In this document: positions 119-53,417 of the stretch, one piece after another
Layout of the letters: each line of letters starts with the position of its first letter
How positions within the stretch are numbered: position 1 is the first letter of the stretch
NCBI RefSeq assembly: GCF_036365525.1
Contig: NC_090397.1
Coordinates: 31,176,352 to 31,240,351, forward strand
Source of the DNA: Heterodontus francisci
Taxonomy: Eukaryota
DNA: 64,000 bases
Reading direction: 5' to 3'
Position numbers and translations under genes: made by a program
Notes under the pieces: generated by a model
What the model was told of the DNA's origin: nothing
What the model saw: only the letters and a program-made list of their open reading frames with translations
Database searches by the model: none

Positions 119-1383
119 GGGAGGCAGTGGCATAATGGTATTGTCACTGGACTAGTAACCCAGAGACCCAGGGTATTGCTCGGGGGACATGGCTTCAAAT
201 CCCACCACGGCAGAAGATGGAATTTAAATTCAATTAATAAATCTGGAATTTAAAAAAAACCCAAAAAGCTAGTCTAATGAGGGACATGAAACCAATGTCG
301 ATTGTTATAAAAATCCATATGGTTCACTAATGTCCTTTAGGGAAGGAAATCTGCTTTCCTTACCTGGTCTGGCCTACATGTGATTCCAGACTGACAGCAT
401 AGAGTCATAGAGTTATACAGCACAGAAACAGGCCCTTTGGCCCACCATGTCCGCACCGGCCATCAAGCCTATCTGTTCTAATCCCATTTTCCAGCACTTG
501 GCCCGTAGCCTTGTATGCTATGGCGTTTCAAGTGCTCATCTAAATACTTCTTAAATGTTGTGAGGCTTCCTGCCTCTAATACCAGATTCCAACCATCCTC
601 CAGGTCAAAACATTTTTCCTCAAATCCCCTCTAAACCTCCTGCCCCTTACCTAAATCTATGCCCCCTGGTTACTGACACCTCCGCTGAAATGGCCTAGCA
701 AGCCACTCAGTTGTATCTAACTGCTACGAAGCCAATAAGGAATTAAACCGGATGGACGACCCAGCATCAACCTCGGCACCGGAAACGACAACGGCAAACC
801 CAGCCCTGTTGACCCTGCAAAGTCCTCCTTACTAACATCTGGGGGCTTGTGCCAAAGTTAACAGAGCTGTCCCACAGACTAGTCAAACAACAGCCTGAGA
901 TAGTCATACACACGGAATCATACCTTACAGACAATGTCCCAGACACTGCCATCACCATCTCTGGGCATATCCTGACCCACCAGCAGGACAGACTCAACAG
1001 AGGTGGCGGAAAAATGGTTTATAGTCGGGAGGGAGTTACTCTGGGAGTCCTCAACATCAACTCCAGACCCCATGAAGTCTCATGGCGTCAGGTCAAACAT
1101 GGGCAAGGTAACCTCCTGCTGTTACCACCCACCGCCCTCCCTCAGCTGATGAATCAGTACTCCTCCATGTTGAACAACACTTGGAGGAAGCACTGAGGGT
1201 GGCAAGGGCACAGAATGTACTGTGGGTGGGGGACTTCAATGTCCATCACCAAGAGTGGCTCGGTAGCACCACTACAGACCGAGCTGGCTGAGTCCTAAAG
1301 GACATAGCTGCTAGATTGGGTCTGCGTCCGGTAGTGAGGGAACCAACAAGAGGGAAAAACATACTCTATGTCATCCTCACCAG
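119..1383 (+). mobile_element. 5' part of a CR1/L2-group LINE with a tRNA-derived head and APE endonuclease (interrupted by a CR1 tail at 398-685)
   Basis: A-box TGGCATAATGG (~128-138), anticodon-like arm CTGGA-CTAGTAA-CCCAG, B-box-like GGCTTCAAATCC (~191-202). From 816 the frame reads CKVLLTNIWGLVPKLTELSHRLVKQQPEIVIHTESYL...DRLNRGGG, with VGDFNVHH at ~1226; these are APE motifs. Confidence 0.8.
398..685 (-). mobile_element. CR1 (HER1-like) LINE 3' end fragment
   Basis: Starts with the reverse-complement CR1 tail CATAGAGTCATAGAG..ACAGCACAGAAACAGGCCCTTTGGCCCACC, the same tail as other CR1 copies and the SINEs in this window. Confidence 0.8.
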
Positions 1384-2154: not shown

Positions 2155-4530
2155 AATATTCTGACTAATAAAGATAGCTGCTGAGTTTCTTACCATTATG
2201 GGTATTTTCAGCGACCAACTTGAATTTTCACCCACTCCTCAATATACCCTTAAAAATTACATTCATAACATAACAAACATATGAAAAGTAAAGAGTTCTG
2301 GTGTAAAAGTCACAGAACTGCCCAACGTATTATTAGAGATTCTAGTGTGTACTGTGTGCAATTTAAAATGGTTGAAAATATTGCACAATGTGGGTTAGAA
2401 TTTTCAATACGTATTCTCAGTGGTAGTTCTCAAAAGGGAGTGTTGAGTCCGAAAATTACTCAGTTGTGCTCGTAGCCATGTATCTTGGTTAAGGGGGTTA
2501 GTCTCATATTTCCCAATGTTCAAAAGCCTTGGTTCTGTAAATCATGTTCTGCATTTGAGTTTCTGCCAAAAAAGGGCAGAGCCCTAGGTGATAACAATTG
2601 TCTGAGAAAGAATTGGTCGGACATGGGATATATGAGTGAACCTTTATTACTAGTGCAATGGAATCTTTTCACCTCAATACTCAACCTTGAAGTGAGTGTA
2701 GTAGCTGCTCCTTCTGTATTCTTGTCATAAATGTGGAGCTTTGATTTTAACACTGGCAACTCCTGTGGTGCCACACCAATCATAGCCACTGAAATAACTG
2801 ATAGCTGGTTTGCAGCTCTGCTGGTGGAGGGGTAGTCCGCAGCATTAGTGTTCAGTCCGCTGGTCTACATGGCTTTGGACAGCCCTGAGTCCAAGAGAAA
2901 GAAGTATATTTCTGTCGTAGCTTCCTAAACCTTATCATGACTAAGCTTTTAAAGGATTGCAGAAAACATTTCAGGAAAACATGGACCCAGAAATAGCTCT
3001 CCCTCATGCCTGAGGAACATTCCTTTCCCAAGTTCCATGAAGAGGAAAATGGGGTGCAGACCCATTACATCGGGTCTCGCCACCTTTTATGTGCCCTGGA
3101 TTTCCTGTACTTTTTCATCAAGGTGATCCTGAGTCTGCACCTAAAACGGGTGCAAGGACAGGACAGCCGTAGAAATGAGGCAGGAGGAGGTGTCCCTCAC
3201 TCTCCTGTCTCTGTTTTCTGAGTCTGCATCTGAAGGGTTCTCATTTCCAGTGGCAATACAAGAAGCTGGCGGCAGACCTTGCACCTGGGATCTTCCTCAG
3301 ATTGGAGAGTTTGGGAGGGCCAAGCAACAAGGTAAAGGAGGAAGAAAAGGTAATTTTCACCTTCCTTTTGCAGTCTATCATCAAATCTTTGGTCCTGGAG
3401 GCTTCATGTTCTCCAAGTTGCCAGGAGTCCCAAGGCAACTGGCTGATCCTGCAGCTACAGGCCTTTTAGACCTGCACCTCCTGTTCTATTCCGATCCTCA
3501 TTTCCCAACACAAGGTCCAGGTGAGAGCAAACCAGTGCTAGGTGCATGACAGGGTGACAGAACCATACTAATGACCCAGTCTACCAAGCTCAGACACTCT
3601 GAGGCCTGGGCAGGCTGAGGGCAGTGAGTATGTACCCCTGTGGACAAGAAGGGAAGGAATGGTGGCTCATGGTCATTCAACTGTTCTATCACTTCCATAA
3701 AGAAGTGGCAGATATCTCTAACCTTATCAAAAGTTTGGATAATGGGTGTTGGGCTCATTGATGGAAATACATTAGTTCTCATAGCCAACAGGGAATCTCA
3801 CAATTTGGAGTTGAACTTAGATTTACACTAAGGGCAAGTCCTCATCCGAGCCTTTTCATGTTGGCATTTAGCTTGGAGGTAACCTGTCGATAAGCAGATT
3901 GCTAAATCACTTCTGGCTTTTGCCCAATGTTCTAGAAATTCCTTTATTAAACTAATCTGAATCATAGTGCATTACAGTTTTAGTGAGTTTCTACCACACA
4001 TGATATGATCTCTTTCACATGAAAGTAAGTATTTGATTCCAATCCAAATCAGCAATTTCCTGCTTGAGATTATTCCAATTGCTCCAGGCATATGACAAGG
4101 CCCAAGTTTGTCATTCAAGATGCTAAGGAAAGATCATTAGTGTGGTTTGACCATGCAGTGGTCAAACATGTCATGTGATACTTAATTGAATGTTTCTATG
4201 TGATATGGGGAGATGTCTAATTCTAATGTATTGTAATTATGCTGAATGATATTCTTAAATGTTGGTGATCCTTGTAAGTGCGACTGAAAAATGGAAATCA
4301 TAAAATAAATACAAATGGAGAAGGCCATTCGCCCCATATTAGCTCATCCATCCAAAAAACCCCTCAAATTGCCCCCTCCCCAAATCAGGCCATCTAATAG
4401 ATCATTGTTCTTCTTGACATTAGTCCTAAATTTGTCCTTCACAAATTTAAACCATGTCCCCCTATCCAGATTTGCTTTACTTTGAAATGATGTCCTGAAT
4501 ATATAAATTCTATACAGTTTAACAAGTTAT

Positions 4531-5074: not shown

Positions 5075-5220
5075 AAGGTCACGGGAAGACCGTCATTTGC
5101 AAGTTCACCTCCAAGTCATACACCATTCTGACTTGGACATTTATCACCATTCTTTCATTGATGCTGTGTTAAAATCTGAGAATTCTCTACCTATCACCTC
5201 TGTGGGAGCACCATCAACCA
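5075..5220 (+). mobile_element. Old 3' fragment of the tRNA-headed LINE family
   Basis: CAAGTCATACACCATTCTGACTTGGA... is the reverse complement of the motif at ~1423-1450 and ~49577-49605. Confidence 0.55.
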
Positions 5221-5289
5221 CAAGCAAGTAACTACTCAGATGTCGAATGTGTGTACATGTGTTTTTCTCCTTCCCCCTTCTCCTTCGTT

Positions 5290-9884: not shown

Positions 9885-10328
9885 TATGGTGTAGTGGTTA
9901 CTTATTGGACTAGTAATCCAGAGGTCCGGGGTCTAACAAGACAAGGAACATGAGTTCAAATGCAATCTTGGCAGTTGAGAATTTGAATTCAGTTTTAAAA
10001 ATCTGAAATTAAAATGCAGTTTTTAGTAAAAGTGACAGTGAATCTGTTGTGCTGTAAAACTACCCCAACTGTTCTTTAGGGAAGTAAACCTGCTCTCCTG
10101 AGCTGCTTTGGTATGCATGCGACTCGAGTTCCACACCTACATGGTTGGCTCCTAACTGCCCTTGGAAGTAGCCTAGCAAGACACTTGTTATATCAAATTG
10201 TATCAAACTGATACAAAGGACCACAGCCAATCAAGAAGGCCCATTACTTCCTTCTCAGTGAAACTAGGAATGGGCAATAAATGCCAGCCTTGTCAGTGAT
10301 GCCCACATCCTTGGAATGAGTAAACAAA
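9885..10328 (+). mobile_element. tRNA-headed SINE: head and tail of the LINE family at 119-1383 / 49378-51000
   Basis: TGGTGTAGTGG..TGGACTAGTAATCCAGAG..GAGTTCAAAT..CTTTAGGGAAGTAAACCTGC..GCCTAGCAAGACAC matches 119-715. The tail GGGCAATAAATGCCAGCCTTGTCAGTGATGCCCACATCC matches the reverse complement of 49385-49435. Confidence 0.8.
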
Positions 10329-10677
10329 CATAACCACTATTGAATCTCCCAGCAAATTGCTGATGGGAATTTGGGAGAAATAGGGAAAATGAAAGGGTGA
10401 GATGAACTGAACTCACTTATAAGAGGAACAGAATTGTGCATTTATTTAAGTGAGGATGCTAGGCAAGGGTGATGGTGAATTAATAATTTAATATTTAGTG
10501 ACATTCCCTTCATTATGGAGTATGAGTGATATCATGGAGTAGATGAATTAATGTGGAAGATTGTATAAATAAATTAAAAATAAAGGTAAGATTATTTAAT
10601 TTTGAACAATAAATAGAAGAAATCGAAGCTAATAAAAGGGATTTAGAATTGTAAAGGAGGCAGATTCCTTAAATGAT

Positions 10678-16115: not shown

Positions 16116-16832
16116 CAAAAAATACTCTGGTTCTCATTTTACATTCCACTTAATTTTACTTTCTATTGACTTCAATCACAATCAGGCGAGACGTAAAATG
16201 GGTGCCTGATCTGATACTGTCAGTTTCCTGCTGGGCAGGTTAGGGTAAAATTCCCCTGTTGTAATTTAGGAACAGTAGTGGTCCCAACCTGGAAAGTCTC
16301 ACTTAGTGCTTCCCACACCCCAACATTATTCCACTAATGACAACTTATTGTTTCATAGCCTTCAGCCAATTTCTTATAAAGTCCCAAGGTTTATGCTGAA
16401 TTCCCACGGCTTTGAGTTTAACTTATAGCCTTTTACGTGGAATATTGTCAAATGCTATTTGGAAGCTTTGTCACAACAGGGCTGATTTTAACCTGCTGTG
16501 ATCAGTGCTAACAGGATGGCAAACAGGTCTCAAAACGGGATCAGTAGATTAACTGCCTCTTTAACACCAATGTTCCAGTTGCCAACATTTTTAAAGGGGC
16601 CTTCTCATGGGCAGCCACGGCCTGCCTGTTTTAGGCAGTGCTGCTTTACTGCCTAAATTGGGGTCCTATGATGCTGTCAAGAAAATGTGCTATGCCAAAT
16701 GAATATTTTTAATCTATCGGTTGGAAACTTGGATTAAACTTTTAAAAACAAGAGACAGAAAGAAATTGATAAAAGTCACTGCTAAAAAGCTAAAAATAGC
16801 CACCACCATTTGCATCTGAATACCTTACACAT

Positions 16833-17957
16833 GTGTCTTTGGGGATCCTGCCATCTTCCATGCGGCTCACATGGCCAAGCCATCTCAAGCGCCGCTGACT
16901 CAGTAGTGTGTATAAGCTGGGGATGTTGGCCGCTTCAAGGACTTCTGTGTTGGAGATATAGTCCTGCCACCTGATGCCAAGTATTCTCCGAAGGCAGCGA
17001 AGATGGAATGAATTGAGACGTCGCTCTTGGCTGGCATACGTTGTCCAGGCCTCGCTGCCGTAGAGCAAGGTACTGAGGACACAGGCCTGATACACTCGGA
17101 CTTTTGTGTTCCGTGTCAGTGCGCCATTTTCCCACACTCTCTTGGCCAGTCTGAACATAGCAGTGGAAGCCTTACCCATGCGCTTGTTGATTTCTGCATC
17201 TAGAGACAGGTTACTGGTGATAGTTGAGCCTAGGTAGGTGAACTCTTGAACCACTTCCAGAGCGTGGTCGCCAATATTGATGGATGGAGCATTTCTGACA
17301 TCCTGCCCCATGATGTTCGTTTTCTTGAGGCTGATGGTTAGGCCAAATTCATTGCAGGCAGACGCAAACCTGTCGATGAGACTCTGCAGGCATTCTTCAG
17401 TGTGAGATGTTAAAGCAGCATCGTCAGCAAAGAGGAGTTCTCTGATGAGGACTTTCCGTACTTTGGACTTCGCTCTTAGACGGGCAAGGTTGAACAACCT
17501 GCCCCCTGATCTTGTGTGGAGGAAAATTCCTTCTTCAGAGGATTTGAACGCATGTGAAAGCAGCAGGGAGAAGAAAATCCCAAAAAGTGTGGGTGCGAGA
17601 ACACAGCCCTGTTTCACACCACTCAGGATAGGAAAGGGCTCTGATGAGGAGCCACCATGTTGAATTGTGCCTTTCATATTGTCATGGAATGAGGTGATGA
17701 TACTTAGTAGCTTTGGTGGACATCCGATCTTTTCTAGTAGTCTGAAGAGACCACGTCTGCTGACGAGGTCAAAGGCTTTGGTGAGATCAATGAAAGCAAT
17801 GTAGAGGGGCATCTGTTGTTCACGGCATTTCTCCTGTATCTGACGAAGGGAGAACAGCATGTCAATAGTCGATCTCTCTGCACGAAAGCCACACTGTGCC
17901 TCAGGGTAGACGCGCTCGGCCAGCTTCTGGAGCCTGTTCAGAGCGACTCGAGCAAAG
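16833..17957 (-). pseudogene. RTE reverse transcriptase fragment, uninterrupted frame
   Basis: ORF 16790-17974: PEAQCGFR, FIDLTKAFD, GVKQGCVLAP, LLFADD, FTYLGS, RLRWLGHVSRM. Confidence 0.92.
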
Positions 17958-18327
17958 ACCCACCGGCCGTCCATGTCTCCGTTATAAAGACGTCTGCAAA
18001 CGCGACATGAAATCGTGTGACATTGATCACAAGTCGTGGGAGTCAGTTGCCAGCATTCGCCAGAGCTGGCGGGCAGCCATAAAGACAGGGCTAAATTGTG
18101 GCGAGTCGAAGAGACTTAGTAGTTGGCAGGAAAAAAGACAGAGGCGCAAGGGGAGAGCCAACTGTGCAACAGCCCCAACAAACAAATTTCTCTGCAGCAC
18201 CTGTGGAAGAGCCTGTCACTCCAGAATTGGCCTTTATAGCCACTCCAGGCGCTGCTTCACAAACCACTGACCACCTCCAGGCGCGTATCCATTGTCTCTC
18301 GAGATAAGGAGGCCCAAAAGAAAGAAG
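16833..18327. mobile_element. RTE-clade LINE with 5' inversion (minus 16833-~17957, plus ~17958-18327)
   Basis: 11-bp TSD ACCTTACACAT (16822-16832, 18328-18338), with the empty site present in the 3' LTR. The plus part encodes PTGRPCLRYKDVCKRD..CSTCGRACHSRIGLYSH and the tail. Confidence 0.93.
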
Positions 18328-19245
18328 ACCTTACACATCAAGGTATCAAAGGAGAGATGGATGACTGAGCTAGCCACCACTAGAACAATGCCTCATGAAT
18401 TTGAAATCAGCTAACAGCTTCACTTCTAATGGCAAAACATTGAAAGCCATCTTGGAACAATAATAGTGGAAGATAAACCTCTCCAGGGCAAATATTGAAA
18501 CAATGAGACCCCAGAGAGATTAGGAATTGCTAGACTTGAATCTAATTAAATAAATCAGGACACTGGACAACCATGTGACTGTCTCCCCATCTGTGAAAAA
18601 CTAGCAGTCTTTTGCTAAAAAGGGACAAGCTCCTGAGACTTTGACATGTGGAGAATCCATGGGGGATGGGGTGGGTGGGGGGGAGGGTCTCTCTCTCTCT
18701 CTCCCCCTCTGTCCAGGTGACCTTAGGGCGTTCAAAGCTTGCCTGCTGGCTGCAAAAGATCCAAGTCCAAGACAAAGACGCCCAGGAAAAAGGTCACGTG
18801 CTCTACTGTCTCCAAGAACTTCTACCAACCAAGAACTTCAGGATTCCAGATTCAGCCAGAACACAACTGAATTTACAGATGCCACAGATTGTATATTCTT
18901 TTTATTCAATCCAAACTCTATTCCAACCACTATTCCTCTCCACTGTTAATCTATTTGTGTTTGTGATTCTCGTGTGTGTATGCGTGAAAGTGTAATGTAG
19001 TTTATTATTTTTACTGAGATGAGGTTTTTGGTTAAGTACAATAAACTCATCTCTATCTTGTTTCAACTCAAGAAAACCTGTCTGATTGATTCTTTTATGA
19101 TTACAAGAAAGGTAAAAGGTTAAAGACTCACTGAAGTGGTAAGCACATCCACTGTTTAAAAAGGAATAAACCCTGTTGCGGTCAAACAAGGCGAAGGACA
19201 AGAGGGGAGCCTTGTGACCCCTCCTCTCCTGATTGTAGCAGAAAT

Positions 19246-19264
19246 TTGGGGGCTTGAGTCCATG
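19246..19264 (+). promoter_or_regulatory. Degenerate tRNA-Pro primer-binding site
   Basis: TTGGGGGCTTGAGTCC just after the 5' LTR resembles the tRNA-Pro PBS TGGGGGCTCGTCCGGG. Confidence 0.65.
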
Positions 19265-19379
19265 GTAGTTTCCCAAAGACAAATGAGAAATTGGACGTGA
19301 GAAACCCAATTGATCCCTGGAAAAAATTTAAAAACTTCAATACAGGTTTTATTGTGGTTTTCACTGCTAGAATACTAAA

Positions 19380-20545
19380 ATGTCCACATTTGAGGCCAGT
19401 ACTCTCTTAGAACAGAGTGAAGTAACTTGGGACAGGTTAAAAGCCCTATCAATTGAAGAGTTGATGTAGCTAGGCAGTTAGGGATTGCTATCTGTCCAAA
19501 GGCTAGGAAACCCAAAATCCTAAAGCATATGGCCAACCATTTTGCACTTGAACCTGAAGACTCTGAAACAGGTTTAGGGTCAGAAACAGACAGGTAGCAT
19601 TAGCTAAGATACAGCTAGAACAGAGGAGACTGGAATTAGAATTGCAAGAAAAAGAAAGAGCTTTCCAGAGAAAGAGGAGAGCGAGTATCAGGAAAGCGAA
19701 ACAGAAAGAGCTTTCCAAAGGGAGTTAAGGCAGCTCGAATTAACGAGAGGAAGTCTTAATGCAGCCAGTGAAGGCACTGCTAGTGAGGAAACTACCCCTA
19801 GCTCAGGGCCAAGTGCTGAGCTTTTAAAGTTCTCTTAGTTGATTCCAAAGTTCAATGAGCGGGATGTGGAAGCATTTTTCGTCTATTTTGAAAAGCTTGC
19901 AAAGCAGCTGAAATGGCCAGCAGACAGCTGGACTCTGTTATTGCAAAGCAAATTAACTGAAAAAGCCCGTGAGTTTATTCACTTGCCTGATGAGAGTTCA
20001 TCAGACTATGAGATGATTAAAAATGCTATCCTGAGCATACGAGCTAGTACTGGAGGTGTACTGCCAAAAATTCCGAACCCTCCGAAAGCAACCTGAACAA
20101 ACTTACCTCGAGTTTGAAAGAGTTAAGCAGCTTGTTTTTGCCCAGTGGATATGAGCACTTAAGATACAGCCCACATATAAAAATCTTAGAGAGATGATCC
20201 TTCTTGAGGAGTTCAAAAAACTCACTGCCCCTTTGCATTAGAACCCACGTGGAGGAACAAAATGTTCCAAGAGCCAGGGAGGCAGTCATCTTGGCTGATG
20301 AATTTACAATTGTCAACAAGCCCTTACCGCAAAGGAAACCCTTCCCCAGTCACCTCCAAAAACTAGAAAAGGATAGAATGTGGGAGGGTGATAGGAGCCT
20401 GAACAGCCATGGGTAAGAAGGGAAAACTGGACAAACGGGGCCATCTTCAGGCCAAAAGGATGGTGCTGAGAGTAGGAGCTGCTGAAAACCTGTGTGTTTC
20501 CATTGTAACAAGGTAGGTCACCTTTGAGCTGACTGCTGGAAGTTA
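19380..20545 (+). pseudogene. Gypsy gag (coiled coil, SCAN-like capsid, CCHC knuckle), disrupted
   Basis: IPKFNERDVEAFFVYFEKLA..W..LLQSKL; ILLEEFK..LPLCIRTHVEEQ..A..LADEF; CFHCNKVGHL..DC at ~20492-20537. Confidence 0.85.
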
Positions 20546-20689
20546 CAGGGAAAACCTGTAGGATTAATCAGGGCACACCAGACCAATGCAGGAAAAGGGG
20601 CCCTAATGGAAAGTACAGCAGACCAGACTGTGGCTCTACTTGCGGCAGTAAGATCCAGTAAACCTGCCGCTGTGAGTGCGGGAAAACTT

Positions 20690-22460
20690 AACAAAATCCC
20701 TGAGAGTTACTAGGATTTTGTATCCCAAGGAAAAGTGATCCCATACCCCTTGAGAGAGGCAAGCAAACCCATAGTCATATTTAGGGATGCAGAGGCCACC
20801 CAATTCCTTCTGCTGGGAAAAGGCATGACCTTTCCCAGAGAGTGCATTGAATGCTAGAGTGCTAGTAAATGGTATTGGAGGAAAGTATATGCCCATGCCT
20901 TTATACCAGGTGCACCTGAAGTGCAAGCTTGTTTCGGGACCAGTAAGTGTGGGGATTGTCCCTAGTTTACCTGTGGACAGGGTTGACCTGCTCCTGGGTA
21001 ATGATCTGGCAGGGGAAAAGATGATAGCTTGCCCAGTGGTTTTAGAGAGACCAGAAGAGGTCAGGGAGACAGAGCAGTTGCAGAAGAAGGTCCCCAGCAT
21101 GTTCTCTGACTGTGTGGTGACAGTCCATGGCCGAACAAACTCCATCAGAGGAGGCTGAACTGGCACTGTAGTCAGATGACCCTACTGTCTGGTTACCTGA
21201 AACCTTTTTCGGGAAGTTAGAGGACCCAGAGGATGGGTTAAACAGGTCTTTCATGGTTGTGGCTCAGAAAGCCGACCCAGGGTTAAAAAAGTTAGCACAA
21301 GACTTCCCAAACTGAAGCTGAAGCAGAGGGAGTTCCAGAGTGGAGAGCTCCTCACAGACCTGCGGATGAAGAGTGAACAGTGGTTCACCAGATAGTAGTG
21401 CTGCCGAGGTACAGTAAGGAAATACTAAGAAGAGTCCATGACCTTCCAATGGCTGGACATGTCGGTGTATGAAAAACCCAAGCCCACCTAAGACAGCATT
21501 TTGACTGGCCAAAACTCCACAAAGATATGGTGGAATTCTGTAAAACTTGCCACACGTGCCAGGTTGTGGGGAAGCCCCAACTGCAATAAAACCTGCACCC
21601 CTAATTCCCATACTGGCTTTTGGGGAACCCTTCAGCAGAGTGCTGGTGGATTGTGTGGGGCCCCTGCCGAAAACAAAAGGGGGCTACCAGTATCTTCTCA
21701 CCATTATGAATGTGGCTACCTGATTCCCAGAGGCTATGCCTCTAAGAACTATCTCTGTCAAGGCAGTGGTGGAGGGGTTAACCCAGTTCTTTACCCGATA
21801 TGGGCTGCCTGCCGAGATCCAGTCAGACCAGGGCACGAATTTCATGTCTGGGATTTTTCAAAAAGTCTTGTGTCATCTGGGCATAACCCAGCTAAAGTCA
21901 TCAGCCTACCACCCATAATCACAAGGGGCTTTGTAATGGTACCACCAGACCCTAAAGACAATGATCAGGACATACTGCTACGAGTATCCCCATGACTGGG
22001 ACAAAGGGCTGGAATTTCTCTTGTTTGCCACCAGGGACTCACCCTATTTAGCCCACTGGCTTTAGTCCCTTTGAATTAGTTTATGGAAATGAGCTGAGAG
22101 GACCTCTTAAACTAATCAAGAAGAGGTTTTTTGGACAGAGGGATGAGCCTTCCATGTTGTACTACATTTCCATGTTCCGGGAACAGCTCACAAGAGCTGT
22201 GCAGTGGCTCAGGAACACCTAAAAACCTCCCAGACAGTTATGAAAAGGCCTTTAAACATGCTAAGGCCGGAACATTTCGGTCTGCAGACCATGTATTAGA
22301 ATTACTCCCAATTCAGGGTCAGCCCCTGAAAGCCCGGTTCAGTGGCCCATACCGAGTAGTGAAAAGGATTAGCCAGGTAAATTATTTAGTTCACACCCCA
22401 GACCAAAGGAAAAAGCAAAGGCTGTGCCACATTAACTTGTTAAAGGAGTATTACAGCCGG
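20690..22460 (+). pseudogene. Gypsy protease followed directly by integrase, disrupted
   Basis: Decayed protease RD(T)G motif at ~20783 and DLLLGNDLAG. Integrase: H..P.AGH/CKTCHTC, PFSRVLVDCVGPLPKT, IQSDQGTNF, SSAYHP, RFSGPYRV..CHINLLKEY. Confidence 0.88.
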
Positions 22461-23494
22461 GAAGGAGACAGACAAGCACAGGTCTGTCAGTCAGTCAGGA
22501 AGGAGGAGGACGAGTTAGGGGAAGGCCTGGAGGATTCCCAAATCAAACCCCATACTGTCCTGTTAGCCGACACCCAAGTGTTGGGTAAATTAGATACCGC
22601 ACTCTCCTCTTTAAATGCAGATCAAAGTGGAGCCCGAACAAGGCTGCTCACAGCATTTACAGAAATCTGCAGGAACAAGGAAAGTTCCCAAAAGGGCAAG
22701 CCAAAAATGGGGGAAGGTGCCTCACTTAGTTGAGGTGCCACAGGGGAGTGCAGTGAAAGCTAGACAGAAACATGCGAGCAGTAATGTTCCAGAGGACATA
22801 GGGCACATTAGAAAAAAGACCCTCCCCAAAGTAATGGGAAGAGGGAAGGAAAAATGCACTAAAGTAAACAGCATTTATGTCAATCGCCAGAAAACTAAAA
22901 GTGAGGTCAGTAAGGTTCTACCTGCTGAGGAATCCTGTGATCAGGTCCCAAATCCAAAGAAAATCAAACCCAACAATTTAGATTCAGAACTCAGCAAGAA
23001 CAAGGGCACGGAGGGAATCTCAGACAGCTCAAGGGGCTGAAACACAATTTATCACCCACTATCACGATAGAGATAAGAATTATCAATGTGCCGGAACCTG
23101 CATGGTTAAAGCCATGCGTTGTGGAAACAGCAGTTAAGAGGTTAAAGCTTGTACATACAAGAGAACTTGCCACCAGCAGTAGCAGAAATTTGCATACTAC
23201 TAGCTGCACCAATAATCACATGTTTATTGAGATGAACATTCCCAGAGTATTACAGATTGATGCTGGAGAAACACTAACCCCATTTGACAACACGTAACCC
23301 AAAAGAAATGCATTTTTTAATGGTACCTCATCCAAAGGAAGGATGATGATAAAACTCTAAAAATGTAAACCAGAGCGTAGCTATGGCAGTGTGAGTTTGA
23401 GAAATGAGTGTTTGAGAATGAATGTGTGTTTTCTTTCCCCAAAACCTTGTAATGAAATGCTCCTGTCATCATTTCATTCCGCATGGTGTGGGGG

Positions 23495-23973
23495 TGTTAA
23501 GAAAATGTGCTGTGCCAAATGAGGATTTTTAATCTATCAGTTGGAAACTTGGATTATTCTTTTAAACACAAGAGACAGAAAGAAACTGATAAAAGTCACT
23601 GCTAAACAGCTAAAAATGGCATCTGAATACCTTATACATCAAGGTATCAAAGGAGAGACAGATGACTGAGCTAGCCACCACTAGAACAATGCCTCATGAA
23701 TTTGGAATCAACTAACAGCTTCACTTCTAATGGCAAAACATTCAAAGCCATCTTGGAACATTAATAGTGGAAGATAAACCCCTCCAGGGCAAATATTGAA
23801 ACAATGAGACCCGAGAGAGATTGGGAATTCCTAGACTTGAATCTAATTAAATTACAAATGAGGACATTGGACAGCCATGTGACTGCCTCCCCATCTGTGA
23901 AAAAACTAGCAGTCTTTTGCTACAAAGAGACAAGCTCCTGAGACTTTGACATATGCAGAACCCATAAGGGATG

Positions 23974-24019
<46 letters not shown>

Positions 24020-24526
24020 GGTGACCTTGGGGTGTTCAAAGCTTGCCTGCTGGCTGCAAAAGATCCAAGTCCAAGACAAAGACCCCTGGGAAGAAGAACA
24101 CCTGCTCCACTGTCTCCAAGAACCTCAGGATTCGAGATTCAGCCGGAAGACAACTGAATTACAGACACCACAGAATATATATTCTTTTTATTTGATCCAA
24201 ACTCTATTCCAACCACTATTCCTCTCCACTGTGTAATCTATTTGTGTTTGTGATTCTCATGTGTGTGTGAGTGAAAGTGTTATGTCGTTTATTATTTTTA
24301 CTGAGATCGGATTTTTGGTTAAGTACAATAAACTCATCTCTTCTTGTTTGGTCTCAAGAAAACCTGTCCGATTGGTTCTTTTATGATCACAAGAAAGGTA
24401 AAAGATTAAATGGTCATTGAAGTGATAAGCACGTCCATTGTTTAAAAAGGAATAAACCCTGTTGTGGTCAAACAAGGTGAAGGACAAGAGGGGACCTTTG
24501 TGACCCCTCCTCACCTGATCGTAACA
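23495..24526 (+). repeat. 3' LTR, preceded by a G-rich PPT-like tract
   Basis: GGTGTGGGGG|TGTTAAGAAAATGTGC...CTCACCTGATCGTAACA; contains a (TC)n microsatellite at ~23974-24016. Confidence 0.92.
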
Positions 24527-39140: not shown

Positions 39141-40950
39141 ATTATTGCAACTGCAACTAATATCAAATGAAAGCTACCACCTGCACCAACTCCCCAGCCG
39201 CATCCCCCACCTCCCATCCCCACTTGCACCAAACAGTCCTTCAACCATGGATACACTATTGGGTTCCGTTATGTATTGACATTCGTCATGAAACAACTGA
39301 AAGGGCGTTAACATTCAGGACGCAATAATGGGAAAGAAGTTGAAGTGGAAATTTTATGTAGTATTATAAAAGAAGGAAAATTAACAACCTAATATATTGT
39401 CAAACATCTATGTGTCTACCCTCGGTGAATTACAGTTACTTTAACTTGCACTTGCTATTGCTTATCCGTGGTCCATCCTGTGCAGTTTCAACAGAGGTAC
39501 AGGCAGGTGGCTCAGACTCTTGCCCTGACCGCTGAGATGCTTTTGGCCTATGCTCTCTGGGCTTTGCAGCCTCTCAGGGCCCCTCCAAGACAGCTCCATC
39601 TACACCTGTGCAAGGGCTGACTTGTTCATCGGGAAATGAGGCAGCACAGGTGAGCATTTTGAATGGAGTTTCCACTTCCATGTCCCCTTTCACCATCATC
39701 CCTCTCCTGGGCCAGTGCCACATCACTCCTACCGCTCTGCTGCAGATCAGCTTGGCGGAGATCAGTGACGGGTTAAAGGCCATGGATAAGGTACCTATCA
39801 TCCTGGTCAAGGTGGCAGATATGTTGGCATCCAAAGTCTGCATGGCCTTGGGCATGGCCTGCATGGACTCAATTGAAATCCATGTTTGAAGCAGCATGGA
39901 GGCAGCCACCCTCTCCATGGCATTCTTGCAGTTACCTGATCCACCAATCCAGTTGGACTCCTCCATCCTCTCTGCTGTTGTGGAGACTGTGCGTGGTACA
40001 TCAGTCAGTACCTCATAAAGTTGCTGATTCACCTCCAGCATTCTATTTCCCAATGACAGCTCCGGGGATCAGCATCTGTGTACGGTAGAGCCGAGCTTGG
40101 AGAGGATTGCATCCCTCCCCCGCCCCCGTCCCCAACACGGGCACTCTAAAGCTGTCCCTGCCACCAGCATCTACTTGTGAATTACCAGGTGAAAACCCAA
40201 ATAACTCTCTAACTGAATTCAACAAAGTGCATGAATCTGCAGTGGTGCATGGCTGCACATGGCAGTGAATCCCCAAAAGGAATGAGGTCCTGTGAGGAAT
40301 CACCCTCATACACTCCAGTGACATTTGCTGGTTGCATGAAGGCCCTGAATGACCATATTCAGTCTTCTCATAGTTCAGTCATTAATGAAATAATCAGCAT
40401 GTGTTTCAAATCTATTTAATTTTGTCACCAGCCATCTGCGAGTTCCCTATCTCTCTGATTAAGAGGTATGCAGATGTGTTCTTACTTCCATGGAATCCTT
40501 CTCTGCATCTGTGAGCTGCACAATTAGTCCTGTCCCTCTCCCTTGTATTTTTCACTCTCATTTCCTACAAGGGGTGAAATAACAGACCATTGAGTGAAGA
40601 AAGTCATATATTCACCTGATGGATACAATGTGCTTGGTAAGGGTGACTATGAGACCGATGCATCACGTTGCATAAAGGTTGGGGTGAGTGGCAGTGGTGG
40701 ATGGATACATAAGTATCTCCCATGTAGATACATGAAAAATGCATAGAAAGGGGAGGATGGCTGCTGCTGAAGCTTAAGGGAGGAGTGATGTGATGGAATA
40801 CATTTGTCAAGATAGAGTGAAATGCAGCAGAGGCGATGGTGGGGTGGTTACACCACAGGATGTAGATGAATCAGCAAAAGTACTCACTTTTTATGATTGG
40901 TTACAGCAAGAACAACAATTGCATCTTGTATTTATATAGAATTTATATAG

Positions 40951-44685: not shown

Positions 44686-44719
44686 AACCGACTGCTGTCA
44701 TCAAGATTGGTGTGGGTTA

Positions 44720-44822
44720 TTTTTATTCATTCATGGGATATAGGTGTCACTGACTAGGCCAGCATTATCACCCATGAGAAGGTGGTGGTGAGTCATCTTC
44801 TTGAACTGTTGCAGTCCATGTG
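44720..44822 (-). mobile_element. 3' tail of the tRNA-headed LINE family
   Basis: TTCATGGGATATAGGTGTCACTG..GAGAAGGTGGTGGTGAG, as at 49381-49470. Confidence 0.7.
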
Positions 44823-45104
44823 AAAGTCTCCTCTGCCCCCACCTCCACTTCTCTCATACGTTCTCCTCGATCCATACTGTTTCTGCTCCTTTAACATGTT
44901 ATCATCATTCACTTCCTCTGTTCCTCTAACACCAGACTTCTCTTCATGCCCCTCTCTCCATGCTGCTAAAACCAATGCCTCATTCCTCATTTACTGCATT
45001 CTTTTAACACCTTTGCCTTGTCTCTTGCTCTCTCCATTCGCCTAGCACCAGAGTTCTCCTTGCCCTTCACTCCCTTTGCTCATCTTATTGAGATTTAACA
45101 TTTT

Positions 45105-47765: not shown

Positions 47766-49377
47766 TCCTTCTCCAATGGAACAACAGCATTTATTTTCAT
47801 ATTTTCATTGGTGGTGAAGGGATAGCCTTCATCTTCTCTGTGTTTAACTTGTATATCCATTTTTGTTTTGTTACAGTAGTTTTTTTCTGTTATTAATGTT
47901 ACTTTTCTAATTCTCTGCTGTTTTCCTGGTTGCACGTTGTGGTGTGTTAGTTGGATGTTTGCTTGCTGCTATGGTAGCAGTTGGAGGAAGCGCTCTGTGT
48001 GGCACACTGGGTTTTAATGCTTTGTGTAGACTGTGTGTCTGCCAAGTGGGCTTAATGTCTCTTGTTGCAGTGGTTCCCAAATATGGTATCAAGTAGTGCC
48101 AGGAAAACAATCATATTTAACATTTATTGTCCAGTAGGCCCAGTTCCACGCTGTAAAGAGCATTTTCATCCCACCTGTCAAAAGCAGATTTGATGCCAAA
48201 TCCAGTCTCTAAAAATAAAAGGTTCTACTTGTACTGAGGGATCCAGTGTTGTAACTCAGAATGTAATTATTTCATGTAATTTCTGTATAATAGCAAAAAT
48301 AAAACCAATATCTGTAAAATACTATTTAGTGATTTATTTGTGATTCAGTTATAGATTTTTGCTATTCATCTGCTGAATGTTTCACTTGCAGGTTATCTTT
48401 TAAACGCAGTGTTCTTAAATGGAATAATTACTAATTTCAATTCATAATTAAATAATTTACTAGTTAACTTAATGAAATAACATTTAGATTATTATTTATG
48501 ATGCTGGACTCAAATGTTTTATAAGATTAACAGATTTTAAAAATTAACTGGATATCAAAAGTGCATATACTCCATGTATATCACCACAGAAGCAGGAATC
48601 TAATATCTTCTGTTATTCAGCAGCATGAGTCACTAAAGACAATGAATCATATTTACATGAATGCACTTTTTTCAATTTTTATCTTCAAGTTTGATTTTTA
48701 ACCCGCAGACCTTTGGTGGATCCATGGAAATTGGAGCCTCCCTGCACTGACTATAACTTCCCTTTTTCAGCTCATGGACTTAACACTGAATAAAACACTC
48801 ATATTCCAGTAAAACACAATGACATCAAGGGCCATGCATTTCTAAGGGGAAAACAGAAATAACAATGTCAACTTCTAGGCAACCACAGTAAAGTTAGGCC
48901 AACAATAGCAAGACAGGAGGTCAGCTTCGCACAACCAGAATCAGATTCAGTCACTGAACACCACAGCATGAAGCTGCTGGAGGACCTTTAAGTCCTGCAA
49001 TAGTACCTAAGCCTCTTCCTCTAAATGGGCATGTGCCCAATCACAAGCGCAATATGTGCCCAGTGCATGCTCACATCCATATCTTACCAAATAGCCTGGA
49101 TGAAAAATTCGGATCGGTAGCGCTGCTGGAGGTGGTGCTACTGAAGCTGAACGTCCTCCAGGGGGTGTGCACTCCACCGCCAGCTGCTTCTGGCATGGCC
49201 CGCATGGCGCACAATCTTGGGAAAGGTGCTCATGTGGATGTACCCTGCAACTGAATGCATCCTATCATGACATCACAAAGCCCAACTGGCAGATGCGATG
49301 CTCATTTACCAAATTTGGACCAGGCAGGTCCATTCAACAAATTCACATATTGTTCAAAGAAGTTTTTTTTAAAAATT

Positions 49378-51000
49378 TGTTTCATGGGATGTGGGCATCA
49401 CTGGCAAGGTCAGCATTTCAGCATTTATTGCCCATCCCTAATTGCCCTTGAGAAGGTGGTGGTGAGCTGTCTTCTTGAAACTCTGCAGTCCATGTGGTGT
49501 TGATACACCCACATTGCTGTGAGGAAGGGAGTTCCAGGATTTTCATCCAGCGACAGTGAAGGAACAGCGATATATTTCCAAGTCAGGATGGTGTGTGGCT
49601 TGGAGGGGAACTGGTGTTCCCTCACATCTGCTGCTCTTGTCTTTCTAGGTAGAAGAGGTGGCGGGTTTGGAAGGTGCTGTCAAAGGAGGTGTGGTGAGTT
49701 GCTGCAGTGCATCTTGTAGATGGTACACACTGCTGCCATTGTGCGTCAATGGTAGAGGGAGTGAATGTTGAAGGTGGTGGATGGGGTGCCAATAAAGGGG
49801 GCTGCTTTGTCCTGGATTGTGTCAAGCTTCTTGAGTGTTGTTGGAGCTGCACCCATCCAGGCAAGTGGAGAATATTCTATCACATTCCTGACTAGTGCCT
49901 TGTACATGGTGGACAGGCTTTGGGGAGTCAGGAGGTGAGTTACTTGCTGCCTGTGACCTGCTCTTGTAGCCACAGTATTTATGTGGCTTCTCCAGTTCAG
50001 TTTCTGGCCAATGGTAACCCCCAGGCTGTTGATAGTGGGGAATTTAGTGATGGTAATGCTGTTCAACGTCAAGGGGGAATGGTTAGACTCTCGCGTGTTT
50101 GAGATGGTCACTGCCTGGCACTTGTGTGTTGTGAATGTTGCTTGCCACTTATCAGCCCAAGCCTGGATATTGTCCAAGTCTTGCTGCATATGGACATGGA
50201 CTGCTTCAGTACCTGTGGAGTTGTGAATCATGCTGAACATCATGCAATCATCAATGAACATCCCCACTTCTGAGTTTATGGTGGAGGGAACGTCATTGAT
50301 GAAACAGCTGAAGATGGTTGGGCCTAGGACACTACTCTGAGGAACACCTGCAGCAATGTCCTGGGGCTGAGATGATTGGCCTCCAACAACCACAACCATC
50401 TTTCTTTGTGCTAGGTATGACTCCAACCAGTGGAGAGTTTTCCCCCTGATTCCCATTGACTTAAATTTTGCTAGGACTCCTCGATGCCACACTCGGTCAA
50501 ATGCTACCTTGATATCAAGGCAATCACTCTCACCACACCACTGTACTTCAGCTCTTTTGTTTTTGTTTGGACCAAGGCTGTAATGTGGTCAGGAGTTGAG
50601 TAGCCCTGGCGGAACCCAAAATGAGCACCAGTGAGTAGCTAGTTGTTGTTTAAGTGGTGTTTGATAGCACTGTCGACGACCCCTTCCATCCCTTTGCTAA
50701 TGATCGAGAACAGACTGATGGGGCTGTGATTGGCTGGATTGGATTTGTTCTACTTTTTGTGGACAGGCCATAACTGGGCAATTTTCCACATTGCCGGGTA
50801 GATGCCAGTGTTGTAGTTGTACTGGAACAGGGACATGGCTAGTTCTGCAGCACAGGTCTTCAGTGCTACAGCCGGCATATTGTCAAGACCTATAGCCTTT
50901 GCAGTATCCAGTGCCTTCAGCCATTTCTTGATATCACGTGGAGTGAATCGACTTGACTGAAGACTGGCATCTGTGATGCTGGGGACCTCAGGAGGAGGCT
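49378..51000 (-). mobile_element. 5'-truncated CR1/L2-group LINE (RT and 3' tail), inferred to be the same family as the tRNA-headed element
   Basis: ORF 49746-50492 GVPQSSVLGP..MFIDD..LQQDLDNIQAWADKW-like, with upstream LDIKVAFDRVWH and YRPISL-like motifs; tail GATGCCCACATCCCATGAA. Confidence 0.9.
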
Positions 51001-51179
51001 GATCAAGCGTTCAACAGCAAGAGGGGTCCTGCACTAGCATTACTTAAAAGGCCAGGCACCCAACTTGCAGATAAGGTGATTTTGAAGAACTTCTACTATT
51101 GCTAAGTGCCTGGAAGTACTCTGAAATGTTTTTAGAGGTGTTGTAGTGAGTTCCTGGATTTAGCAGGATGTGTTGCTGC

Positions 51180-52579
51180 ATCCTCACAGGGTGGGCAGAG
51201 GAGTAGGTGACCTGTTCATACCAAGTCGGCAACTGTTATGTAGGCAGCAGTGGCAGTGTCTCTGGGTCTGCATTATGACAAGGAGGTGGAGCAGATGCTG
51301 TGGAAAGGGAAAGCTCTGTGCGATGCCCTTTGCTAACTTGGAGCTGGACTCTTCCATACTCATTGACAGTGACAGGAGACTGTCAAACAGCCCAGCCAAT
51401 GCAGCCAGCATCTCAGTGTGTATGCCTATAAGTGCTCTCCTGTATGCCTCCCCATCATGGTCCTTATCTGACTTTTCAGTAGCAGAATGCATCTACAACC
51501 TCAATCTCCAGTGAGCTGGCACATGAACCATCCATCACCCCTGGCATGGCTCCAGCCCATTTGTATCTGGTGACTCACCACATGCTGATCTCAACTCTAT
51601 GCTAGCTATTAAGATACGTGCAGTGCCAGTATCTGAGCTTATGGCTGCGAATATCAGATCAAGTGACGAGGCCTCTTCACCACTGCTGTGCTGTGCTCTC
51701 TCCTGCTGAGTTGCTGTTACAGGGCAGGCAGCAGCTCTTGGGTGTCTGACAGCAGAAACTCAGAAGGAGAAGGTTGGGGTGATTGGTGGGATTGAAGTGC
51801 TGGAAAGCAAAAGGTTCATGGTGACACCATCTGCAACTTTCTCATCATGCCAGATAGCAGACTGAGAGTGAGCTGGGAGTTGAGAAGGGGCATAAGGCAG
51901 GCACGTACCATCAACCTTGATGTTCTCAATGATGCCAGATGCCAGGGGCTCTGTCACAGCCGGCCCCATGATGTGGAGAACCATCTCCTTCACAGGGCTC
52001 AGGAGATGCAGGCATCCTTGTTGCCTGTCAGCTCTGCTCTGCTCCCTTCTATTGCGTGCTAGCTTATCCTGCAAGGGAGAGGGCAGAATGTCAATGGTTG
52101 TATTTCACTGTGGTTGGATGATGTGGCTGCCATAGCTGAATAGCTGGAGGTATTTGGAAGCAGCAAGAGGTGGATGTGAGGCTGGCAGCACTGAGAGGCA
52201 TATGAGGGTGAGGTAGAATATGTGACTGTTAGGTCTGAGTCCTGAGGGCCAGGCCTGCTGCTGGGTGAGTGATTGAGTTGTCGGGCATCGAGCACCGTGA
52301 GAGGTTGGTGGAGCAGTGGGTAGGAGATGCCTTCATTGACCTTAACCGCCTGTTTGCAGTCATTAGACTTCTTGTGGCTTTGCTGCCAGGTCCTTGGGTC
52401 CAGACACCAGGAACTGACCTCCTTGGCCACTTGCTCCCAATCCCTTCTGAGGGTTGGTCTTGAGGGCCTCCTGGCCCCCTGCAGAACCATTGCTTCTCTC
52501 CTCCTGTCCACCTTCACTATTAAGGCCTTCAGTACCATATTCATAGCCTTGGAGCCCCCTCTCTGCCCTGGTGTTCCAT
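51180..52579 (-). pseudogene. Harbinger Myb/SANT-like DNA-binding protein gene relic (about 3 exons)
   Basis: LKALIVKVDRRREAM..W EQVAKEVS..RTWQQSHKKSND. Putative exons 52579-52341, 52068-51909 and from 51745, with GT/AG boundaries. Confidence 0.7.
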
Positions 52580-53417
52580 TTTTCTTGTTTAGAATTGCAG
52601 CAATAATATTCAGCAGCAGCTTCCTGTCATACAGTGCAGCTTCCCTTTAGGAGTGACAGACTGCCTTTTAGAACAGAGGGCTGGCTGCACCACCTGCTAT
52701 CAGCCAGTGCTGGTTGGCTCCATGCTGAGTGAAGAGACAGCCCGCAGTTCAGCAGACCCTTGGCCCTATCCTACGATCGGTTAAATGAGGTGGCAGCATC
52801 AAATTTGTGTGCTGCCTGCCTCCACCAGAACCGGCGTGTGCCAGTGGCAAATCGTGACCCCTGTGCCCGAATAATGATGCAAGCCAATTTTTAGCCCCTG
52901 TGTCTATGGGAATTTTCTTTCTGCAAGATTTTATTTCTGTTGTCATGCCTTTTCGTCAGTTTTTTCATTGACACCTGCCTATTATCTACATCTAAAATGG
53001 ACATGCCCAACATCAACTGATTCCTGTCACTATGGAATTACAGTCTCTGGCCATTACGTGTAATAGTGACAGGAGACAGTTGATGGAGGATTTTTCCATA
53101 TTCCGTGTGGACATAGGAATTTAGAATGGGAGAAGTTTCTTAAATGATTCCAGCCTTGTGGATATTCCCTGCATGAATATCTCATGTTTCTTGGTGACCA
53201 GAACTGGATGAAGCATTCAAGATGTGAGCCTTTGGCTTAATGGTAGCATTCCTGCCTCTGAGTCAGAGGTAATAATGATCAAACTGTATCAATGCTTTGG
53301 ATGATAGTTTTAGTGATGGTGTCTTTCTTTGGCCTAATTTTGGTTCATTTATATATTTTAGTTTTGCAGGGTGATTTACAGTCTGACAGGCCATGGCGAT
53401 CTTTCCATCCCAGTAAC

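Follow-up and report, generated by a model that had tools for sequence, protein, structure and literature searches.

The window analysed here, a 64,000-nucleotide stretch of Heterodontus francisci DNA, contains an element that is, judged by its sequence, an old and rearranged copy of the LINE known as elasmobranch Zenon, which belongs to the CR1 group. Zenon is here ~3.3 kb long, has a single ORF encoding an endonuclease (EN) and a reverse transcriptase (RT), and has as its family-wide 5' end a tRNA-derived head of the type known from SINEs. The Zenon family is already described; its SINE-type head is undescribed in the literature searched. On balance, and with some reserve, we favour the view that this head acts as an internal Pol III promoter of the LINE, and that the uncapped RNA would be translated from an unconventional start.

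Identity of the element

Zenon elements have been described in sharks, rays, the coelacanth and hagfish, and in the accessible parts of the paper all of them lack ORF1 and all carry a poly-A tail (Stuart et al. 2026, PMC13343379). Supplementary Table 2 of that paper, as far as it is visible, holds 10 Zenon consensuses, seven of them from elasmobranchs, two from hagfish and one from coelacanth. The elasmobranch consensuses (CarCar, HypSab, RhiTyp, ScyCan and SquAca-1/2/3), which are 2886-3314 characters long, derive from five species, namely white shark, stingray, whale shark, catshark and dogfish (three). Zenon is stated there to make up 0.7-6.8% of the genome in five elasmobranchs and 0.02% in chimaera (PMC13343379). 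When the first 400 letters of each consensus were compared with the window by eye, the head and leader of the window element (119-397 and 686-815) were found to be matched by all seven elasmobranch consensuses, every one of which starts within a few bases of the head start; in two of the seven the start of the EN is also reached within these 400 nt (PMC13343379). The visible 5' ends of the two hagfish consensuses and the coelacanth consensus, which may not be true ends, have no tRNA-like head, and this suggests a gain of the head within the elasmobranch lineage. The head appears to have gone unremarked: 'tRNA' and 'polymerase' are absent from the accessible text of PMC13343379, and 'tRNA' is absent from the accessible supplement text.

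The traits of Zenon can be followed in the window. The EN and the RT lie on separate window pieces, which are joined in gene models P0003 and P0004; both models contain the window EN and the window RT region. An A-rich end is found on the sister copy at 49361-51010 and on a fragment near 44715. With the nested CR1 removed, ~410 nt separate the head start from the EN, and this interval holds no ORF of at least 120 aa; the original prediction, that the ~400 nt before the APE endonuclease leave no room for an ORF1, is thereby borne out. The RT half is tied to the head and EN in four ways: by the gene models, by a SINE that shares both ends with the LINE, by the A-rich tail and by the sum of the lengths. 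Indeed the parts, when the missing linker is sized from the relative P0022, add up to ~3.23-3.28 kb, as compared with 3.24-3.31 kb in five of the seven consensuses. In a quick tree, built with no named references, the window RT stands away from the CR1s of the window and groups with nine unnamed proteins at an SH-aLRT of 89; the seven longest of these nine neighbours are 858-963 aa in length.

Structure of the locus and its relatives

The most plausible view of the locus at 119-1945 is that a full-length element has undergone inversion and loss in its interior. Its leader is interrupted at 398-685 by a later insertion on the minus strand, a 3' fragment that we take to be of CR1 type, which matches other repeats in the window and is skipped in other copies. 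Among contig joints (4,387 in all, 15 of them listed), 11 of the 15 listed pass from 364-399 to 685-713 and hence bypass this repeat, as its description as a nested element would predict. About 20 nt of the leader are missing at the insertion, and the missing letters are carried by the loose contig ends at 399 and 685. Beyond the EN, the RT/C-terminal coding end and the start of the 3' UTR are found at 1384-1945 (76% identical to 49534-50092). This piece had been put forward as a copy of the family adjacent to the EN: it is a family copy, and it lies on the minus strand, inverted against the head and EN. It is without the last ~155 nt of the tail, and in one run other copies run on into the tail at 1380. 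A near-perfect inverted repeat at 1906-2154 (97-nt arms, 97% complementary, with an AT-rich centre) begins inside the inverted RT piece, and is either a fold-back rearrangement or an assembly artefact.

A 5'-truncated sister copy lies at 49361-51010 on the minus strand, where its ORF and its PF00078 relatives mark out the pre-RT region, RT, C-terminal region, 3' UTR and A-rich tail. It retains a 280-aa open stretch at 49749-50588, and its pre-RT region is 62% identical to P0004, which also contains the window EN. Two smaller relatives are a short 3' UTR fragment at 5102-5222 on the plus strand (74% to 49612-49493) and a tail-only fragment with an A-rich end on the minus strand, with approximate limits of 44715-44825 (85% to 49445-49496). 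The window also holds direct repeats at 18324-19240 and 23625-24526 (87% identical) around broken integrase-like frames, so that 18324-24526 is presumably a decayed LTR retrotransposon; open stretches at 52059-52646 and 39574-40068, both on the minus strand, seem to resemble the accessory gene, of Myb/SANT type, that Harbinger-like DNA transposons carry.

The 5' edge of the family

Contigs from four of the 24 listed runs, three of them DNA and one presumably RNA, were placed on 40-1900, with 200,000-264,000 contigs placed per DNA run; such contigs carry no start, strand or cap information. Across the four runs contig depth is 0-21 at 40-102 as against 2.5e4-1.5e6 at 103-165, and the loose ends before 119 (1129 and 946 in the two runs in which this site is among the six listed) show an agreement of 0.34, the mark of many unrelated flanks. 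The family has a sharp 5' edge at 119, at the start of the tRNA head, in many insertions. The leader is bridged to the EN by five of the 32 contig pieces listed, and none of the pieces listed runs from head to EN in one. As contigs mix heads borne by SINEs with those borne by LINEs, which cannot be told apart in them, and as none spans head to EN, the published consensuses carry the main weight. With these, two ways in which the original prediction might have failed were checked. A head-EN junction unique to this locus is not what is seen, the link being family-wide in the visible ends of the seven consensuses and in the contigs of four runs; and the full-length elasmobranch consensuses, in the part visible, have neither an upstream Pol II 5' UTR nor an ORF1 (PMC13343379).

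The tRNA-like head

The head, which forms the family 5' end, occupies 119-212 on the plus strand and is delimited by its A and B boxes, by the step in contig depth and by the same start, as judged by eye from the visible ends, in all seven consensuses. The A-box-like TGGCATAATGG at 128-138 and the B-box-like GCTTCAAATCC at 192-202 each differ by two changes from the consensus motif used. The A box begins 9 nt past the 5' edge at 119; an A box ~9 nt after the start is the geometry of a tRNA-type promoter. Between the boxes are an anticodon-type arm with the loop CTAGTAA at 147-163 (plus strand, four of five stem pairs) and an insert of ~21 nt at 168-188 (plus strand), which forms a second arm, at 168-184, likewise with four of five stem pairs. 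This arrangement of box motifs around an arm with that loop and a ~20-nt insert is as first described. The insert is likely to be a tandem duplicate of the anticodon arm and variable loop that is old and not essential: it is identical to 147-167 at 10 of 21 positions in the window copy and, by eye, at 17 of 21 in a dogfish consensus, and it has been lost by deletion from the stingray consensus (visible 5' ends, PMC13343379). In the first 400 nt of the elasmobranch consensuses the A box is present, by eye, in seven of seven and the full B box in six of seven, with a spacer that varies in both length and letters. Pairing in the window head is reduced to 1/7 in the acceptor stem, 1/4 in the D stem and 3/5 in the T stem. 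The promoter boxes have thus been kept and the cloverleaf has not, a pattern that speaks for a promoter rather than for an RNase P substrate; both arms, by eye, still pair with differing letters across the visible ends of the consensuses.

A relationship to tRNA(Thr) had also been proposed. The head is of tRNA type, and the Thr identity is no more than a possibility, in that the label rests on three loop letters and the arm frame is common to many isotypes. At its default threshold ARAGORN found no tRNA within the 64-kb window, and Rfam gave no tRNA match up to E=10 in 1-2200 and no ribozyme family there either; the window head is too decayed for either program. At a loose threshold ARAGORN called 124-212 as tRNA-Thr(AGT), one of 193 calls in the window, and no weight is placed on it. 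The arm frame had 119 matches in viral contigs, of which 113 were tRNA calls of many isotypes, mostly phage-type; the anticodons among the 119 included GAA (45), TAA (20), CAT (17) and TTG (8), with none for Thr. The stem and flanks of the head are, we assume, at least as close to vertebrate tRNA-Gln. Single-strand folds of the head and leader were no better than those of shuffles (z -0.75 to +0.55).

Leader, endonuclease and start of translation

The leader totals ~400 nt. Its first part, at 213-397 on the plus strand, aligns with the SINE at 9885 and is present in the visible ends of all seven consensuses; its second part, at 686-815 on the plus strand, was mapped from translations and the list of ATGs, and contains ATG-GCC-TAG at 690-698, an A-rich stretch and an Arg-rich frame. 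The APE endonuclease follows at 816-1381 on the plus strand. A stop and a change of frame near 1128 interrupt it, so that it is read from 816 to 1127 and then, in the new frame, from 1130 to 1381. The latter piece matches PF14529 (E=1.1e-7), the first piece on its own gave no Pfam family, and the EN is 65-70% identical to gene models P0001-P0004.

The Arg-rich frame (~741-815) is continuous with the endonuclease and has no open in-frame ATG. There are 11 ATGs in the leader of the window copy, and the sole near in-frame one, at 690, is closed by TAG after one codon. Since this copy offers no open in-frame AUG ahead of the EN, an unconventional start of translation seems to be needed whichever polymerase makes the Zenon RNA, and the AUG-GCC-UAG together with the Arg-rich frame is a candidate for a read-through or non-AUG start. 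Within the visible 5' ends, AUG-GCC-UAG occurs in six of seven consensuses and is in the EN frame in three of five traced by eye, and a second AUG ~75 nt before the EN motif, also in six of seven, is out of frame in the one traced to the EN (PMC13343379). Gene model P0003, which contains EN and RT, begins at this second AUG. P0136 and P0138, which come from copies that lack the stop and so are a biased sample, begin at the first AUG. Among the nearest unnamed single-ORF relatives a Met is found 2-30 residues before the EN motif in all six that have the motif; P0052 is without it.

T4 runs on the sense strand

Runs of four Ts (T4) on the sense strand had been counted as two in ~3 kb, and exactly two are present in the 3150 nt of the four family pieces, at ~1748 and at 50618-50621. 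The run at ~1748 had been noted as missing from the sister copy, which is so, and it is also missing in 91, 86, 86 and 99% of the depth in the four runs. Where the 50618 copy reads His, gene models P0003 and P0004 have Gln, which suggests that the second run may likewise be copy-specific. If both runs are private, none is left in 2588 non-redundant nt (P=0.012-0.05). Only 40 of 199 family differences are visible, so that T4 runs may also have been lost from the window copies.

When the count was set against expected rates, the shortfall proved to be real and borderline, with P=0.05 to 0.23 depending on the null. Base content predicts 5.9 runs (P=0.051) and dinucleotide shuffles predict 3.8 (P=0.23); synonymous-codon shuffles predict 1.8 where none is observed (P=0.10), in 1662 coding nt that exclude the run at 50618. 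The CR1 pieces have 23 T4 in 7906 nt, where 24 are expected at 25% T. The sense strands of CR1 are therefore richer in T4, as had been asserted, and the contrast is mostly one of base content, Zenon having 22% T. As a control a little-decayed LINE at 16675-18327 on the minus strand, which has a 441-aa open stretch and which we take to be of RTE type, was counted and found to contain 10 T4 in 1653 nt. As a wider background, 60 of 80 distant LINE loci were used (22-34% identity), each with at least 1 kb matched, the other 20 being dropped; none of them is a Zenon sister. Here 42 LINE coding stretches with 19-25% T contain 92 T4 in 53.8 kb, or 1.7/kb as against 0.63/kb in the window Zenon, and eight of these 42 T-matched ordinary stretches are as poor in T4 as the window Zenon. 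By eye, no T4 occurs in the visible 5' ends (first 400 nt) of the seven elasmobranch consensuses. The SINE at 9885-10330 contains two sense T-runs, which counts against the Pol III reading. Taken as a sign of Pol III, the scarcity of T4 is suggestive.

Partner SINE and origin of the head

The non-coding SINE at 9885-10330 on the plus strand joins the head and leader to the 3' tail of the LINE, and aligns with the head and leader pieces at 119-397 and 686-740 as well as with the LINE tail, 49378-49500. It had been presented as a SINE with the head and tail of the LINE, and the alignments with the head, with both halves of the leader and with the LINE tail confirm this. Its insert between the arm and the B box differs from that of the LINE, and no named SINE was matched. 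Measured by the traits of SINE2 elements, the LINE has the head with A and B boxes, and only 9885-10330 is short and non-coding as well. The motif TGTATCAA is present at the end of the leader and again just before the LINE tail, next to the join of the two SINE halves.

The most likely account is that the LINE captured the 5' part of the SINE: a Zenon LINE would have taken over the 5' part of its partner by template switching at the short shared TGTATCAA, and the captured head would have replaced the ancestral promoter before sharks and rays split. The opposite direction, in which the SINE arose by deletion from an already headed LINE, is possible.

How Zenon may be transcribed

In the mechanism we propose, TFIIIC and Pol III would start transcription at the first bases of the head, and Pol III would continue across the body, poor in T4 as it is, and the A tail until it meets a T-run in the flanking DNA, where it would stop. 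The Pol III transcripts of SINEs end in this manner, at a flanking T-run. Translation would then begin independently of a cap, with ribosomes starting at a non-AUG codon close to the A-rich stretch or else reading through AUG-GCC-UAG. What counts for Pol III, besides the borderline scarcity of T4, is that the A box (7/7) and B box (6/7) are kept around a variable spacer and that the family edge is sharp at 119. The missing ORF1 had been offered as a further pointer to Pol III, and this argument has to be given up: the lack of ORF1 is common to all Zenons in the accessible account, including the hagfish and coelacanth ones, which have no head in their visible 5' ends, and being ancestral it is no evidence for Pol III. 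It has been reported, in the part of the study accessible, that ORF1p is dispensable for the retrotransposition of Pol III transcripts (Kroutter et al. 2009, PMC2666806), and the uncapped RNAs of R2 and L1Tc are proposed to be translated via IRES-like 5' ends, according to the portion of PMC6765202 available.

The main competitor is that Zenon RNA is a Pol II product whose internal promoter lies within or close to the captured SINE 5' end, the boxes being kept for open chromatin or for a SINE that exchanges 5' ends with the LINE; we regard this as possible and as the less probable reading. LINEs generally use Pol II, according to the accessible parts of two papers (Kojima 2018, PMC5786205; Kojima 2024, PMC10886601), and the same sources give Pol III processivity as the limit that holds SINEs to 100-700 bp, which counts against Pol III transcription of a LINE. 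The RNA must moreover yield protein, the T4 shortfall is borderline, and the head and leader are common with the SINE, so that contigs mix the heads of the two. Against Pol II stands the 5' edge, which lies exactly at the start of the tRNA head in many insertions and in the visible ends of all seven consensuses; moreover a capped mRNA that is scanned would meet 11 upstream ATGs in this copy, none of them open and in frame.

The exact 5' edge could equally follow if the head acted as RNA, its tRNA-like fold being cut by RNase P or a similar nuclease so that the element is freed from host transcripts, much as the HDV-like ribozymes of R2 and L1Tc do. This is unlikely. Both arms do keep their pairing with different letters (by eye, visible ends), and there is precedent for a processed, uncapped LINE RNA in the accessible part of PMC6765202; however, the acceptor stem is unpaired in the tRNA register (1/7), and by eye is not paired in the visible consensus ends either, the stingray consensus has lost the second arm, and no fold is better than shuffles. 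Last, a SINE might by chance have inserted beside a 5'-truncated LINE at the window locus only. The rearranged state of the locus, with its inversion at 1383/1384 and inverted repeat at 1906-2154, and the lack of a listed contig that spans head to EN in one piece would suit such an event, which we consider highly improbable: seven independent consensuses have the head and leader in their visible ends, two of them reaching the EN start, P0003 starts in the leader and contains EN and RT, and the summed parts match the length of five of the seven consensuses. A chance insertion is refuted by these consensuses and by the contigs that run from leader into EN.

If the Pol III reading is followed through, a protein-coding LINE has swapped its Pol II promoter for that of its parasite SINE, is transcribed over 3.3 kb by Pol III, makes EN-RT from an uncapped RNA that offers no open in-frame AUG, and makes up several percent of shark genomes; this fuller picture is put forward tentatively. 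The divide between LINEs and SINEs is usually stated as one of Pol II and coding versus Pol III and non-coding (accessible parts of PMC5786205, PMC10886601 and PMC2666806). A LINE that carries a SINE promoter and accounts for as much as 6.8% of a shark genome either breaks that rule or represents a LINE that takes over its parasite's 5' end. If Pol III were confirmed, Zenon would provide a natural 3.3-kb Pol III mRNA with a new cap-independent leader, as well as a natural test of whether it is the polymerase that determines if ORF1p is needed.

Comparison with known systems

The published elasmobranch Zenon belongs to the same family as the window element, which it resembles in its 5' 400 nt, the lack of ORF1, the APE-RT ORF, the A tail and the length of ~3.3 kb, and no sequence difference is visible in the accessible material (PMC13343379). 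In the open-licence PMC and bioRxiv literature no title or abstract pointed to an autonomous LINE that has a tRNA head or is driven by a Pol III promoter, and the leader motifs gave no exact match in metagenome, prokaryote-genome or viral contigs and no papers. None of the 60 distant LINE loci has a strict pair of A and B boxes upstream, in a set where many lack the 5' region and by a standard that the decayed window head fails too.

Among tRNA-headed SINEs with a conserved body, SacSINE1 and other Deu-SINEs and the MetaSINEs come to mind, since MetaSINE heads are closest to tRNA(Thr) and SacSINE1 is found in sharks, according to the parts of the papers available (PMC5499810, PMC4824008). SacSINE1 has an L2-type tail, whereas the tail of the SINE at 9885 is that of Zenon. 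The leader is, by eye, unlike the bivalve Meta and Meta-Deu bodies, SacSINE1 being compared by its description. Identity with MetaSINEs was not supported, as the 66-bp Meta domain was not seen right after the head in a comparison by eye with bivalve members in the accessible part of the supplement (PMC4824008).

R2 and L1Tc, with their HDV-like ribozyme 5' ends, are alike in the proposed translation of an uncapped RNA via a structured 5' end; they are, however, freed by self-cleavage from Pol I or polycistronic transcripts (PMC6765202, accessible part), and 1-2200 of the window has no ribozyme match in Rfam. Bipartite SINEs, in which a tRNA head is joined to 5' and 3' parts of RTE or Vingi elements, resemble the SINE at 9885 in sharing a 5' part and a tail with a LINE (Kojima 2018, PMC5786205, accessible part). 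There, it is a non-coding deletion derivative that has gained the head, the LINE being headless, whereas here it is the coding Zenon LINE itself that is headed. The TRIMp3 elements Cassandra, Helenus and Ajax are, like the headed Zenon, retrotransposons other than SINEs that have a Pol III promoter derived from a small RNA; they differ in being short, non-coding and of LTR type, and their autonomous partners must, in the accessible account, use Pol II (PMC10886601).
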